Source of the DNA: a virus
Strand: one strand, 5' to 3'
Length of the DNA: 64,000 bases
IMG/VR virus record: IMGVR_UViG_3300044675_001825
Location: 1 to 64,000 of that record
A program made the position numbers and the translations under genes. Below the pieces are notes generated by a model. It had not been told where the DNA came from. It worked only from the letters and a program-made list of their open reading frames with translations, and did no database searches. Position 1 is the stretch's first letter. Each line of letters begins with the position of its first letter. This document shows positions 16,802-23,125 of the stretch, piece by piece.

Positions 16802-17503
16802 TTATTTTTTAAATTGTTCAAACCATTCTTTAAATAAATCTTTACCCCAATATTTAGTAGCTTTTCCTTGATGTGTATAGTAAAACATTGCAAAATCAAT
16901 CATATCTTCCTCACTATACATTCTTTCAGCTTGCCATTTAGCACCTTCATATAATCCTACTTTAACATTATTCAAATCATTTTCATAATTTGTAGGAAAT
17001 GGTTTTTTTGGATAACCAAAAGTGTATAGATGTTCCCATTTACTTTTAAGTTTATCCATTGCTATTTTTTCTATTTCAGCAGCTTCTTCTAATAGTTCTT
17101 GTTTAGGTTCTAACTCATAAGAATGTTTTTCTAAACCTTGTTGTTCATATTCTTGAACTGTTTGTTTAGGTTCTTCTTTTGGAATGATTATTTTGTAAAT
17201 TGGCTCAACTTCATTTTCTCCTTTAAATTTTTTAAATGGTCTAATATTTACAAACTCACAACTTGGATTCTTAACAAACCATTCTAAAAATTCATCATCA
17301 ATAGCTTGTACGCCATCTTTGATAAGGTCTGTATCTGTTGTTAGGATGATTGAAAAATAGTCAGTATACACAGGAGTTCTCATTTTCATAAAATCTCTAT
17401 ATTTGTATATTTTACCTTCCCAAAAAACATAACCTCCTTCTTTAATTTCTTCATCATTAGTGATAAACAATTCTTTTCCTATGTTATAGATATTTTTTGC
17501 CAT
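16802..17503 (-). CDS. Hypothetical mosaic protein (ITNDEEIKEG / IILTTDTDLIKDGVQAIDDEFLEWFVKNPSCE family)
   Basis: Likely start MAKNIY at 17503; C-terminal GAKWQAERMYSEED...WFEQFKK module. Confidence 0.7.
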   Translation of the reverse strand: MAKNIYNIGKELFITNDEEIKEGGYVFWEGKIYKYRDFMKMRTPVYTDYFSIILTTDTDLIKDGVQAIDDEFLEWFVKNPSCEFVNIRPFKKFKGENEVEPIYKIIIPKEEPKQTVQEYEQQGLEKHSYELEPKQELLEEAAEIEKIAMDKLKSKWEHLYTFGYPKKPFPTNYENDLNNVKVGLYEGAKWQAERMYSEEDMIDFAMFYYTHQGKATKYWGKDLFKEWFEQFKK

Positions 17504-18078
17504 GATGTGTTGTTTAAAATATGTGTTATACAAGATTCACTTACATTATACTCTTTTGATAGCTTTTTAGCTGAATACTTATAAGGAATATACTTTTGTT
17601 TTATTTCTAAAACTTGTTCTTTTGTTAATAATGACCTACCATTTTCTTCTCCTGAATATGCAACTCTATGTAAATGAAGTTTGTTTAATCCATTTTTAGT
17701 AGCGTGTATGTGATTTTGTGAGTTAGTACACCATTCAAGATTGTTTGTTTTATTATTGGTTTTATTACAATCTATATGGTTTACTTGTGGATAATCATTA
17801 ATGTTGTCAACAAATACCTCTGCAACTAATCTATGAACATACTTATTTACTTTTACATTATTAACAGTAAAACCAACAGTCATATATCCAAGATTACTTT
17901 TAGATTGTTTGCACATCTTACCTTTTCTCCAATAAGGAACTCTATTGTTTGGAGCAACTTCTCTATCTAAAGATTTTACATTACCAAGATTAGATACTTG
18001 ATATAAACCTTCGTATCCAATTACATTTTTCCAAACTTCTGACGTTGGTAATAAATGTATGTTTTTATTTGCTTCCAT
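17479..18078 (-). CDS. NUMOD4-HNH homing endonuclease
   Basis: EVWKNVIGYEGLYQVSNLGNVKS (NUMOD4), VHRLVAEVF, VNHIDCNKTNN...NLEWCTNSQNHIHA (HNH), C-terminal HTH. Confidence 0.92.
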   Translation of the reverse strand: MEANKNIHLLPTSEVWKNVIGYEGLYQVSNLGNVKSLDREVAPNNRVPYWRKGKMCKQSKSNLGYMTVGFTVNNVKVNKYVHRLVAEVFVDNINDYPQVNHIDCNKTNNKTNNLEWCTNSQNHIHATKNGLNKLHLHRVAYSGEENGRSLLTKEQVLEIKQKYIPYKYSAKKLSKEYNVSESCITHILNNTSWQKISIT

Positions 18079-18259
18079 AATCAAAATCTGGTATATAATT
18101 AGGGTTAACTATAAGACTAATGCTGTCTATTGATTTAAACACATTGTCTGCTGTAAATTTTTTAAGTGCCTCCATAATGTTATCTGCTTCTACAATTTCT
18201 TCTAGATCTGTAGCTTCATCATTACGCTCTGTCCAATAACATATTAAATATCTTCTCAT
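18065..18259 (-). CDS. Hypothetical protein
   Basis: 64-aa ORF. Confidence 0.6.
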   Translation of the reverse strand: MRRYLICYWTERNDEATDLEEIVEADNIMEALKKFTADNVFKSIDSISLIVNPNYIPDFDYGSK

Positions 18260-19589: not shown

Positions 19590-19612
19590 AAGGGCTCCAC
19601 TACAGAGCCCTT
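19590..19612 (-). terminator. Hairpin/terminator
   Basis: AAGGGCTC/GAGCCCTT stem, followed by U-rich sequence on the minus strand. Confidence 0.55.
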
Positions 19613-19624
19613 GAATTTCCCTCC

Positions 19625-19771
19625 TTAATAACCCAACTGTTCAAGTTGGTCTATACTGGCTTCTACAATATACACACCCTGTGCCATTGTACATACAAAT
19701 GCAATAGACATTGCAAATGCTAATTTTCTAAATTCATAAAACTCAGTTGGAATTAATTTAATTGTTTTCAT
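19625..19771 (-). CDS. Small hypothetical protein (48 aa)
   Basis: MKTIKLIPTEFYEFRKLAFAMSIAFVCTMAQGVYIVEASIDQLEQLGY*. Confidence 0.5.
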   Translation of the reverse strand: MKTIKLIPTEFYEFRKLAFAMSIAFVCTMAQGVYIVEASIDQLEQLGY

Positions 19772-19801
19772 TTCTATTGTTATTAAGGATTAATACAAAT
19801 T

Positions 19802-19836
19802 AAAAAATCCCTACACACTTGAGACATGTGTAGGGA
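19802..19836 (-). terminator. Rho-independent terminator downstream of tmRNA
   Basis: TCCCTACAC/GTGTAGGGA stem plus six U on the minus strand. Confidence 0.75.
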
Positions 19837-19875
19837 AATGGTAAAAGTTATGTACAATGCAAAAGACATAACTAG

Positions 19876-20242
19876 TGGAGATGCTGAGACTCGAACTCAG
19901 GTCTTTAATACTCAAATAGTTACAATTTTATACAGCTTATATTCCTACACTTATTTAAAGAGTCTGCAGGAGATACTCTGGGGCCAACAGTTATGTTAGC
20001 GAAACCACCATCTTGTTTAATCTAACAAGAAAATCTTTGAATGTTTAGGCTGCTACAACAAGATCAATATCCTCAGTTAATAATGAGAACACTTTGTTCA
20101 TGTTAGCTTCGATTTGTGCGTTGTCTCCTTGAGATACTACACGAGAATTGTTTTTGCCATTTATTATATTCACCTTAGTTTACAGTTATCTCTCTGGCTG
20201 AATTGTAACCCATGCTTATTAAATCAATTCCATGTCATCCCC
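19876..20242 (-). ncRNA. ssrA: tmRNA (transfer-messenger RNA), about 367 nt
   Basis: 5' GGGGATGACATGGAATTGA; 3' GAC-CTGAG-TTCGAGT-CTCAG-CATCTCC-A (T-arm plus acceptor stem with G3:U Ala determinant and discriminator A). Helix 2 GTTACAATT/AATTGTAAC (20201-20209 with 19919-19927); pseudoknot AGAGT/ACTCT plus CCTGCA/TGTAGG; internal tag frame ends VVAA*. Confidence 0.93.
20045..20158 (-). other. tmRNA tag reading frame (A)GKNNSRVVSQGDNAQIEANMNKVFSLLTEDIDLVVAA*
   Basis: Resume codon GGC after ATAAAT; 37 codons to TAA; C-terminal hydrophobic-AA degron. Confidence 0.75.
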
Positions 20243-20397
20243 AAATGTCCCTCGTGTGAGGGCACAGTTCAATTAGTTGTGTTGACCAATGATCAACTTT
20301 TAAAAATGTATAATATAGGTAAGTTCAGTGATACGCAGCACATACATTGACTATTTAAACTACTTTGTGGCGATTATAGTCCCCAGTGATTATACAA

Positions 20398-20441: not shown

Positions 20442-21809
20442 TCAATACTTAAGTTCTTGCTTTCCTGCTTCAACAGAATATGTAAACACTTTGTCATCTT
20501 CTGTAACTTCAATCTGTTTACCACCTGTGTTAAGACACAAGTCTTTCAATTGACTACTGAATGACATCAATGATACAGCATTCACCTTGTATGGGAATTT
20601 ATCTGTACCAATATCATCTTGACCATCATTGATAACTAAGATCTCTGGCTTCTCTTCTGATAGATTTACATCAAGATTACATAATGTACCTCTTGTTATC
20701 TCATCAGAGATGTGTGCAACCATATCACCCACCTCTGTCATACCACCATTTGGATTATTAGAGAATGTTTGCCAAAACTTAATGACATCTTCTCTATCCT
20801 TGATATGTTGGAACTCAAGATCAGCTGTACTGTCAACAAAATAACTGAAGAACACTTCAGCTTCTCCTTTCATGACATACTTGAATCTGTCGATTAATAT
20901 AGCATTAACCCATATCTGTTTCTGACGATAATCCATACTACCTGAATAGTCAAGAATGATAATAATCTTCTGAATCTGTTCTTTTCTATCAACTGGGACA
21001 CTAACTGTCAAGTCTTTAGTTAAGAACTTACTTCTGAAGTTTGGATACACCTTCTGCATTAGATTCATCATATGGATTTGAGAATAGTCTCTCATAATCA
21101 TAGTAGAATACTCATCAGAATTAGCTACAATCTTCTCACTGATTTCTTTCTCCACTTTAAACTCACTACCAAATTGACCAACAAGAGATAGATGGTTCAT
21201 AATCTCCATCTTTCTATCTCTACTAAGATCATTAAGATCTAGTTGCTCATTAATAGTTGGGTCACTGTAAAGCTTTCTATCAAAGTCTAAGCCTTTCTTC
21301 ATGTCCAATTCATCATCATCTTCTTCACTACGTTCAGCATGTTCTTTACCACTCTTCATTTTCAAGAAAATAGATATGGCTTGTTCCAATGGTGTGAATC
21401 CAGGAATGTATTGCTCAAATATACTATCGTATAGAGCTTTTCTTGCTTGATGTTCACTGTCTTCAGAATCTATAAACTGCTCAGCTACAAAATCACGCTC
21501 ATCAATCATCTTGAAATAACACACACGTGCTAGTTCTTTGATTGTATCAACAGATGTTTGCTTTGGAGCATGCACTTTCTTTCTGATCTCTGATGTAGTT
21601 GGTGTTAGATATGTAACAGGATCTTTAACAAATAGATCATCGTTATTATCTGTGTCACCCCATGAGAAAGAGAATGAACCCCATCCACTCTTGGACCAAC
21701 CACCACTATATTTACTCTTCCAACCACCTGTACTCTTTGTAGGAGTATAGGTTGGGGCATAACGACTACCATAGTAATCGTCATACCCATCATCCCATAA
21801 GTTTCTCAT
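20442..21809 (-). CDS. von Willebrand factor A (MIDAS) domain protein
   Basis: IIILDYSGSM (DxSxS), NGGMTEVG, VINDGQD; adjacent to a MoxR ATPase. Confidence 0.85.
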   Translation of the reverse strand: MRNLWDDGYDDYYGSRYAPTYTPTKSTGGWKSKYSGGWSKSGWGSFSFSWGDTDNNDDLFVKDPVTYLTPTTSEIRKKVHAPKQTSVDTIKELARVCYFKMIDERDFVAEQFIDSEDSEHQARKALYDSIFEQYIPGFTPLEQAISIFLKMKSGKEHAERSEEDDDELDMKKGLDFDRKLYSDPTINEQLDLNDLSRDRKMEIMNHLSLVGQFGSEFKVEKEISEKIVANSDEYSTMIMRDYSQIHMMNLMQKVYPNFRSKFLTKDLTVSVPVDRKEQIQKIIIILDYSGSMDYRQKQIWVNAILIDRFKYVMKGEAEVFFSYFVDSTADLEFQHIKDREDVIKFWQTFSNNPNGGMTEVGDMVAHISDEITRGTLCNLDVNLSEEKPEILVINDGQDDIGTDKFPYKVNAVSLMSFSSQLKDLCLNTGGKQIEVTEDDKVFTYSVEAGKQELKY

Positions 21810-23125
21810 TAGATAAATGAAGCAATAGTTAAGTTCTTAGTAAACTTGTCTACAGAAGATGTAGCTGCTTTTACAAGCTGTGCATGTACATTAGCAACAT
21901 CATCACCCACTGTCAAGCCTTTGATGTCTTTCAATTGCATGCTAAGACTGTTAAGAGCTTCTTTGTAAGTCTTCTCATCTTCTCTTGATCCTAATGGAAG
22001 AGTGTTCAATGTCTCAATCATATGTGTAATACCTGAAGACAACTCTCTAAACTTCATTGTAGCCTCAAACTTCTTAATTGCTTCAGCAATAAGAGATGGT
22101 TTCTTAGCAAACTCAGCAATAAATGCTAATGATTCTGGACCACACTGATCATACACTTGATATGCTGTAACAGCAACACGAGGACTAATGGTAATACTAT
22201 TCTTAGCATACTCTTGTAACAAATAAGGAATAACAGGATCAACTTCTCCTTCACCAAATTTACTCTCCAATAACTTGTTATAGCTGATCTCTGTGTAGTT
22301 ATCCCAGATAACATTCAATTCAAGAGGAAAACGCTCCATCAATGCCTTCAATGACATGTTCTTAGAGAATTCATCACGAGTTCTGTTAGTACAACAGATG
22401 ATGAACTTGGTGTTGATAGGAAATATCTGTGTACCATTTCTAAATACACCACTAGATAGAATATCCTTCAATTGCTCTAGGATAAAATCAGGAGCATCGA
22501 ATAACTCTTCGAAGATAACATACTCGTGGTTCATAAATGAATTCTCAACAAGATATTCAATCTTACCTGTTGTTTCGAATGTAGGAATGTCAAGACCACC
22601 AAACAATCTGTCTGTAGTCATACCTGTACCCATGGTTTGTATGAATGGATCAATACCTTTTGATTTAAGAAAATCTAATGTAATCTCTGACTTGCCATGT
22701 CCCCCAGGTCCGAAAAGTACTACATTTTTACCTGTAGAATATCCTACGTTTAGAATGTTAACTGTCTTATCCATGAATACAAACTTGTCTCCCACTGGAT
22801 TTTTCTTTACTGATTTAGTTTTTGTCTTCATCTTTTCTTTTGTTATTAAGGAATTATTGTTTTTTACTTGGTTTAAAATTTCTTTTGTTTCTTCTTCTGA
22901 TAGCTCTATTGAGTTTAAAATGCATTGATTAGCTCTGAATGTCCAATCATCATGATTGAAATCATGTCCTGCTTCAATTTGTTTAATGAATTTGTCAGGA
23001 ATGTCTTGTCCCATAAAATGATTCATGTCACCCTCTTCATTCCAGAAGTAAGGACAGTCATAATCTTCATTCCAAAGATCAACATCTTCAAACTCTTCTT
23101 GTGTCTTAAATCTATATTTTGTCAT
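21809..23125 (-). CDS. MoxR-family AAA+ ATPase with extra N-terminal domain
   Basis: NVVLFGPGGHGKSE, VIFEELFD, ICCTN, ALMERF. Confidence 0.85.
   Translation of the reverse strand: MTKYRFKTQEEFEDVDLWNEDYDCPYFWNEEGDMNHFMGQDIPDKFIKQIEAGHDFNHDDWTFRANQCILNSIELSEEETKEILNQVKNNNSLITKEKMKTKTKSVKKNPVGDKFVFMDKTVNILNVGYSTGKNVVLFGPGGHGKSEITLDFLKSKGIDPFIQTMGTGMTTDRLFGGLDIPTFETTGKIEYLVENSFMNHEYVIFEELFDAPDFILEQLKDILSSGVFRNGTQIFPINTKFIICCTNRTRDEFSKNMSLKALMERFPLELNVIWDNYTEISYNKLLESKFGEGEVDPVIPYLLQEYAKNSITISPRVAVTAYQVYDQCGPESLAFIAEFAKKPSLIAEAIKKFEATMKFRELSSGITHMIETLNTLPLGSREDEKTYKEALNSLSMQLKDIKGLTVGDDVANVHAQLVKAATSSVDKFTKNLTIASFI

Follow-up and report, generated by a model that had tools for sequence, protein, structure and literature searches.

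Can a phage tmRNA add a tag of 37 residues to unfinished proteins, and what would so long a tag be kept for? In textbooks, the tmRNA tag is the standard example of a short C-terminal degron. The locus lies in a 64,000-nucleotide stretch of DNA (termed the window), which belongs to an IMG/VR virus record of 77,456 bp with an estimated completeness of ~67%. The sole RNA gene that ARAGORN detects in the window is a tmRNA at 19875-20242 on the minus strand, with EDIDLVVAA reported as its tag. The Rfam model RF00023 matches 19873-20242 of the same strand with a score of 63.2 bits (cut-off of 47 bits) and an E-value of 2.6e-22, covering the full model positions 1-374. Both programs find a complete, one-piece tmRNA gene at 19876-20242, in agreement with the original prediction, the span of which coincides exactly with the RNA from G1 to the discriminator A; the strand, which had been left unstated, is the minus strand.

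19876 to 20242, minus strand: mature-length tmRNA of 367 nt, from G1 to the discriminator A (Rfam, ARAGORN and reading of the sequence)

The record carries genes for terminase, portal, major head protein, DNA polymerase and a RIIA-like protein, which bears out the earlier description of the RNA as phage-encoded. The terminase shares 27-40% identity with those of crAss-like, Cellulophaga and Flavobacterium phages, a distant relationship, and the DNA runs that hold this stretch are lake and freshwater metagenomes. The virus that hosts the tmRNA is an uncultured, lytic-type and distantly crAss-like phage of lake water. The gene smpB was not found in the window, as first noticed, nor anywhere in the ~67% complete record, and five complete phage genomes that bear members of the same RNA family (FpV4, phi14:2 and three uncultured phages) have none either. 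Because the record and these five relatives lack smpB, the host SmpB would be needed, and the dependence that had been proposed on this ground is upheld. A search of the same incomplete record for a CCA-adding enzyme likewise found none.

Relatives were collected through a block of 28 nt that occupies the position of pseudoknot 1. In total, 92 members could be read end to end, and this parsed set corresponds to 66 unique sequences with 62 distinct tags.

20168 to 20195, minus strand: almost invariant block of 28 nt, CAGAGAGATAACTGTAAACTAAGGTGAA, situated where pseudoknot 1 would lie (a scan of IMG/VR gave exact matches in at least 118 viral contigs)

The tRNA-like domain and the adjoining helix 2 are assembled from the following segments.

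20236 to 20242, minus strand: 5' strand of the acceptor stem, GGGGATG, with G3 of the G3:U70 alanine identity pair (family comparison)
19877 to 19900, minus strand: T-arm (19884-19900) and 3' strand of the acceptor stem (19877-19883) (family pairing)
20196 to 20223, minus strand: 5' strand of helix 2 (covariation with the 3' strand)
19901 to 19937, minus strand: 3' strand of helix 2, beginning with AGCTGTA (covariation)
19873 to 19875, minus strand: 3' trailer CTA, encoding the first C of CCA alone (reading of the sequence)

The acceptor stem of the window RNA has seven base pairs (GGGGATG/CATCTCC) including G3:U70, followed by the discriminator A, and the T-arm reads CTGAG-TTCGAGT-CTCAG. Both G3:U70 and the discriminator A are present in 66/66 unique family sequences. 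Across the same sequences, the acceptor pairs G1-C, G2-C, G3:U and G7-C are constant, and positions 4-6 covary with 100% canonical pairing (GC/CG at position 4, GC/TA/CG/AT/TG at position 5 and TA/CG at position 6). The five pairs of the T-arm are also 100% canonical, with three to four pair types each around a loop of TTCGAnT. In helix 2, relatives carry double changes such as ACAATT/AATTGT, AGAAAT/ATTTCT, ATAATT/AATTAT and AATGTT/AACATT. The alanine acceptor stem with its G3:U pair, the T-arm and helix 2, all seen at first reading, are therefore present, and all three covary in the family. Together with the RF00023 score, the identity pair and discriminator, and a T-arm and helix 2 in place without an anticodon arm, these features place the RNA among the tmRNAs. 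At the 3' end, the reported CTA was found, and the lack of an encoded CCA is ordinary: the full CCA is encoded in one of the four Flavobacteriales-family tmRNA genes whose 3' ends were read, and the trailers of the 92 parsed members comprise CAA (36), CTA (33), CAG (9) and others (14).

Whether the tag is long depends on where translation resumes. The relevant elements lie between the 28-nt block and the 3' domain.

20156 to 20158, minus strand: resume codon GGC (Gly), with TAAAT just before it (Rfam consensus alignment and position in the family)
20048 to 20158, minus strand: tag reading frame of 37 codons (open in 92/92 parsed relatives; pN/pS)
20045 to 20047, minus strand: stop codon TAA after ...VVAA (reading of the sequence)

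The frame reads GGC AAA AAC ... GTA GCA GCC TAA and gives the peptide GKNNSRVVSQGDNAQIEANMNKVFSLLTEDIDLVVAA followed by the stop, the same peptide and the same 37-codon length as first proposed. Rfam aligns the consensus resume codon to the GGC at 20158. The 28-nt block follows the pattern CAGAGAGATAACTGT(N0-4)AAACTAAGGTGAA, to which the window is an exact match, with a GGN or GAC resume codon 10-13 nt farther on. This distance is 10 nt in the window, and over the 92 parsed members, which resume on GGC (56), GGA (19) or GAC (17), it is 10-13 nt throughout; resumption is early in every homologue, and none of them places the resume codon so as to give a short tag. From there the frame stays open for 26-45 codons (median of 35) in 92/92 members, with no frame-disrupting indel in any of them, and the two alternative frames close at a median of 6 and 11 codons. 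It ends on TAA in 71 members and TAG in 21, and the tag terminates in AA in 83/92 and VA in 9/92. No in-frame ATG lies upstream in any of the 66 unique sequences (0/66). As in tmRNAs generally, this frame has no start codon, begins at a resume codon and closes with a hydrophobic ...AA end and a stop.

The pattern of substitutions is codon-like, as shown by the alignment of homologues. The pooled pN/pS is 0.56 in the frame, compared to 1.03 and 1.19 in the two shifted frames, and the summed entropy of the third codon positions is 36.7 versus 26.1 and 24.3 for the first two. In alignments with relatives the frame is kept as a peptide through many synonymous differences, and the length classes at the N-terminus differ by whole codons without stops. 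On this evidence the whole frame is kept open and in register, and is selected as a peptide.

The output of ARAGORN would support a different reading, in which translation resumes late, the tag is EDIDLVVAA and the 28 codons upstream are untranslated RNA. ARAGORN misses 15/66 members of the family and reports the same frame in 49 of the 51 that it detects, in 40 of which it places the in-frame resume point later and so shortens the tag. These late points vary from member to member, in contrast to the resume codon that stands at a fixed distance in all. The Rfam consensus resume codon is the GGC at 20158, the whole-codon length classes contain no stops, and the ARAGORN start would leave out of the tag Q15, A18, N19 and M20, which are invariant as residues and show synonymous variation. 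A short tag is accordingly very improbable. Since ARAGORN starts late in 40/51 members while agreeing on the frame in 49/51, its 9-residue tag for the window is a calling artefact.

Within the 37-residue tag, conservation is concentrated in a central segment.

20078 to 20116, minus strand: conserved tag core, codons 15-27, Q-I-E-A-N-M-N-K-V-F-S-L-L (62 distinct tags)

In window numbering, the residues that never vary among the 62 distinct tags are Q15, A18, N19 and M20; V23 is kept in at least 90% of them, and the core consensus is Q-[IV]-x-A-N-M-x-x-V-[FHY]-[SN]-[LI]-[LI]. The window tag has QIEANMNKVFSLL at this place and ends with VVAA; with this core, a length in the range of 26-45 codons and an AA or VA C-terminus, it belongs to the long-tag clade. 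The codons for the A, N, V and L residues of the core vary at the third position. In the class to which the window tag belongs (31 unique sequences), codons 14-27 have a pN/pS of 0.30, compared to 0.74 for codons 1-13 and 0.96 for codons 28-33; the shifted-frame controls give 1.3-1.7 for codons 1-13 and 0.5-1.1 for codons 14-27. The core is thus under strong selection at the peptide level, while selection is weak on the N-terminal extension and slight or absent on the spacer of codons 28-33.

The tags of the family are mostly acidic. AlphaFold2, run with the alignment of the 62 tags, predicted a helix over residues 10-36, with a pLDDT of ~88 at residues 11-30. The segment that had been called amphipathic-looking did not live up to that description, as 29.5% of 2000 shuffles of the same peptide reach the observed helical moment. 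The hydrophobic-Ala-Ala end of the tag corresponds to the ClpX recognition element.

The extra residues might instead be a neutral spacer, or be shaped by constraints on the RNA, in an otherwise working tmRNA, with no recognition role of their own. Such a reading fits the weak or absent constraint on codons 1-13 and 28-33, the invariance of codons 7 and 13-15 even at the third position in the window class, which could reflect RNA constraints, and the lack of any partner gene in the 122 loci compared. It does not account for the pN/pS of 0.30 in the core, nor for the A, N, V and L residues that are kept through synonymous changes across three tag classes and different phage lineages. We therefore consider it unlikely, and favor a core that is recognized as a peptide.

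The tag motif was also sought outside the tmRNA genes. The tag profile finds no natural protein with the motif among the PDB sequences. Against 1.84 billion protein representatives it returns 80 entries, 79 of which are open reading frames of 28-94 amino acids, most of them stopping at the end of the match; the four that were read end in the tag. These 79 short entries are taken to be probable gene-caller artefacts at tmRNA loci. The remaining entry, a repeat protein of 721 residues, is clearly spurious and unrelated. As a separate observation, the 45-residue tag at L052:440-574 (plus strand) begins like the window class (GKNTNSVVSQGDNAQ...) and has a core and tail that belong to a different one (...ANMTVVHNILNGG...ELAA), a composite which suggests recombination within the tag frame.

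Similarity searches with blastn identified the tmRNA in the FpV4 group of Flavobacterium psychrophilum phages, with no feature annotated beneath the match; in phi14:2, a crAss-like phage of Cellulophaga baltica, they matched the conserved upstream block. FpV4 has an Rfam score of 58 bits and no ARAGORN call, whereas the phi14:2 gene is called by ARAGORN and has an Rfam score below the threshold. The tmRNA is unannotated in the deposited records of FpV4 (KT876724.1, L002:2965-3379) and FPSV-S29, and 13 further annotated FpV/FPSV records list no feature under the match. When 185,579 species, represented by one genome each, were scanned with the block, one match was obtained, on a 4,939-bp contig of a Flavobacteriales metagenome-assembled genome (MAG); the same contig is entered as viral in IMG/VR. 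No further match to the tag profile turned up in 401 genomes sampled from the class of this MAG. Among the genomes searched, the long-tag clade thus appears on viral DNA only.

Ten tmRNAs from the bacterial family of this MAG (Flavobacteriales), which probably includes relatives of the host, provide the closest cellular comparison. They are ~393 nt long, score 110-145 bits with RF00023 and have tags of 8-9 codons at positions 94-126. Like the phage RNA, they are one-piece molecules with G3:U70 and the discriminator A, often without a full encoded CCA; they share the TAAAT-GGC context with a glycine resume codon at ~85-95, and their tags end in hydrophobic-Ala-Ala. They differ in the tag itself, which has 8-9 residues (GENNYALAA, GESNYALAA and ESNYALAA) compared to 37 in the window phage, in the Rfam score, which is 63 bits for the window and 58-84 bits for the family, and in the pseudoknots described below.

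These differences bear on the proposal that the RNA is a passive and functionless host remnant, either a copy of ssrA or an attachment-site fragment carried off by imprecise prophage excision. The proposal has precedents, as tmRNA genes are common sites of prophage integration and ssrA fragments occur in prophages (PMC9004378, PMC11590407). Here, it is already contradicted on several counts. The gene is full length and sits inside an early block with terminators before and after it, and complete phage genomes, circular or terminally repeated, carry members of this clade. The family departs from the Flavobacteriales tmRNAs both in score (58-84 versus 110-145 bits) and in tag length (26-45 versus 8-9 codons), and it is absent from the bacterial genomes searched, save the MAG contig with its double listing. 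We regard the probability of a host remnant as negligible, and a gene maintained by the phages as the preferred reading.

The two regions that flank the tag frame also depart from the Flavobacteriales tmRNAs. On the 5' side, the 28-nt block was exact in 62/78 loci that were retrieved independently via the tag peptide, and the 15 readable variants differ from it at one to three positions. It is conserved above every other part of the RNA, the acceptor stem included. In the Flavobacteriales tmRNAs, pseudoknot 1 has two clear stems (e.g., CGAGC/GCTCG and GGATAA/TTATCC), whereas the phage block has one short stem, of which CAG/CTG alone is evident, extended to CCAG/CTGG in two variants. Hand inspection revealed no second stem of pseudoknot 1, Rfam marks non-canonical pairs at the block, and the block could not be folded into the two-stem pseudoknot of the Flavobacteriales tmRNAs examined. 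An invariant block in place of a covarying pseudoknot suggests that the sequence of this RNA segment, rather than its shape, may be recognized. A pairing of AAGGUGA within the block as an anti-Shine-Dalgarno element was considered and dropped, as the common variant AAGAUGA weakens it.

On the 3' side, the domain that leads from the stop codon to helix 2 is reduced.

19938 to 20044, minus strand: reduced 3' domain of 107 nt, with covarying hairpins and a candidate H-type pseudoknot (comparison with relatives)

The candidate H-type pseudoknot consists of AGAGT/ACTCT with a loop TCCT that pairs to AGGA. In a comparison with the relatives L067, L029 and L025, one stem of this domain varies between CTTGTT/AACAAG, CCTATT/AATAGG and CTTAGT/ACTAAG, and another between AGAGT/ACTCT and TGAGT/ACTCA. 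The distance from the stop codon to helix 2 is 107 nt in the window and has a median of 105 nt in the family (range of 65-219 nt), compared to ~200 nt, by arithmetic estimate, for the region of pseudoknots 2-4 in the Flavobacteriales tmRNAs. This shortening fits a long frame that replaces pseudoknot space, and the suggestion that the frame takes up such space was a fair one.

A degenerate-looking pseudoknot 1 and a phage without its own SmpB are also what one might expect of a decoy, an RNA that titrates the host SmpB or alanyl-tRNA synthetase and shuts down host trans-translation, with its reading frame irrelevant. Inhibitory phage tmRNA fragments are on record: in mycobacteriophage DS6A, a tmRNA fragment with the tRNA-like domain only and without a reading frame inhibits the host tmRNA (PMC4131195). 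Both are phage RNAs derived from tmRNA, yet the window RNA keeps a long frame under selection, and a decoy has no need of peptide-level conservation over 26-45 codons with a degron-like AA end. We consider a decoy quite improbable, and a tmRNA that is translated remains the preferred interpretation.

Phage tmRNAs as such are known from the mycobacteriophage Bxz1 group, Bacillus phage G and, as a two-piece form, Methylophilales phage Melnitz (PMC4131195, PMC9004378). They occur in 2.3% of phage genomes (PMC9004378), and the flavobacterial phages Calle and Panino have been reported with a tmRNA (PMC8776804, PMC11590407). Similar to the window gene, they are ssrA genes carried by viruses that lack smpB, and their presumed role is to assist host trans-translation or to redirect it (PMC4131195, PMC9004378); as far as the available text of these reports goes, they record presence only and describe no long tag conserved across a clade. 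The commonest tag length in a catalogue of ~97,000 tmRNA sequences is 10 residues, and very short tags are discussed there (PMC11915505). A long tag has a cellular counterpart in Mycoplasma, where an unusually long tmRNA tag directs efficient degradation, with Lon as the main protease that recognizes it (PMC8403727). Both tags are well over the usual 10 residues; however, the Mycoplasma tmRNA is that of a genome-reduced bacterium, and its tag is unrelated in sequence to the Q..ANM..V core. The literature searched, in the text available, yielded no published description of a conserved clade of long-tag phage tmRNAs.

The tmRNA sits in a block of early and replication genes on the minus strand. 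Directly upstream is a gene for a protein of 455 residues (20442-21809, minus strand), which has no match in Pfam or PHROG and shares a stop/start overlap with a gene for a MoxR-type AAA+ ATPase of 438 residues (21809-23125, minus strand; Pfam bpMoxR and AAA_5). A terminator-like hairpin follows the 455-residue gene and precedes the tmRNA, and a second terminator lies beyond the 3' end.

20243 to 20266, minus strand: 5' leader with a CCCTC-ACAC-GAGGG hairpin right before G1 (a similar hairpin in L007 and L026)
19808 to 19836, minus strand: strong intrinsic terminator with an 11-bp stem and a T run, the stem starting 36 nt past the CTA trailer

With terminators both before and after it, the tmRNA looks like a transcription unit of its own. 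The 5' leader is probably removed by RNase P. The MoxR and 455-residue genes were rejected as conserved partners, as they occur in 14/66 loci with enough upstream DNA, and an all-versus-all clustering of 2,105 open reading frames from 122 loci found no constant neighbor gene, the largest cluster being present in 29 loci. No tRNA-like RNAs were found flanking the window tmRNA.

Expression was assessed on assembled contigs from four freshwater RNA libraries, in which transcript ends are invisible and DNA carry-over is possible. Contig depth is high only at 20149-20210, over the conserved block, where it reaches ~6,700 in one run; these contigs derive from relatives. One RNA contig over 19927-20058, with two differences and a depth of 4, is close to the 3' domain of the window phage. 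The contigs give a weak hint that RNAs of this family are abundant, and no proof of expression for the window gene.

Altogether, we consider it likely that the window gene is a functional tmRNA that adds a 37-residue tag, and that it gives the phage rescue capacity through host SmpB, with the helix as a second recognition element. We propose that the gene would be transcribed as its own unit between the upstream and downstream terminators, and that host enzymes would trim the RNA and complete its CCA end, after which the host alanyl-tRNA synthetase would charge it with alanine. Host SmpB would then bring it to ribosomes that have stalled on broken mRNAs in the infected cell, where translation would resume at the GGC at 20158, add 37 residues and stop at TAA. 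The resulting tag would have a modular structure, in which a variable N-terminal linker (codons 1-13) is followed by a constrained helical core, an acidic spacer and a hydrophobic-Ala-Ala end that resembles the ClpX degron of ordinary ssrA tags. The phage would most likely supply extra rescue capacity in this way, the released fragments still being marked for proteolysis, and an adaptor or protease may recognize the conserved helix as a second element.

Because the family is large and viral only and its core is invariant, the tag probably has a role beyond labeling unfinished proteins for destruction. More tentatively, and with a probability that we place below that of its opposite, the helical core (Q..ANM..V[FH][SN][LI][LI]) could be a motif on which a factor of the host or the phage docks, so that the products of rescue are re-routed. 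If so, these products might meet a different protease or adaptor, be sequestered or be put to a use other than simple disposal by ClpXP, and the virus would re-program the output of trans-translation beyond providing extra rescue capacity. The roles first proposed for the extra residues, namely redirection to another adaptor or protease, titration of host ClpXP and substitution for a host tmRNA that has been cleaved, are speculative. A large, viral-only clade that keeps a tag of three to four times the usual length with an invariant core raises a testable question, namely what a phage gains by changing the label on unfinished proteins. Cultured phages of the clade are available, namely FpV4, which infects the fish pathogen F. 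psychrophilum, and phi14:2, a crAss-like phage of C. baltica. For annotation, the consequence is that many long-tag phage tmRNAs are missed or given shortened tags by ARAGORN, and that the gene is unannotated in the FpV/FPSV records inspected.

Several further features were observed at the window locus and in its relatives. A block of ~95 nt (about 20290-20385, minus strand), lying between the upstream terminator and the tmRNA, is near-identical in L077 and L033, where its flanks differ, and is covered by contigs of all four RNA libraries. It has no match in Rfam, and could be a promoter with a leader or a separate small RNA. Downstream of the tmRNA, a 48-residue open reading frame (MKTIKLIPTEFYEF..., 19625-19771, minus strand) begins 7 nt after the motif TCCTTAATAAC (19779-19789, minus strand), and its last codons hold the complementary GTTATTAAGGAGGG, just before a terminator at 19590-19612 (minus strand). 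In the complete 100-kb genome L012, the tmRNA is followed by 19 Rfam tRNA matches. At L035:3998-4221 (minus strand), a group I intron (Rfam, 94.8 bits) is inserted in the 3' part of a long-tag tmRNA, so that some members of the family are split by an intron. The early block of the window itself contains an open reading frame at 17479-18084 (minus strand) with NUMOD4 and HNH_3 domains, of the homing-endonuclease type.
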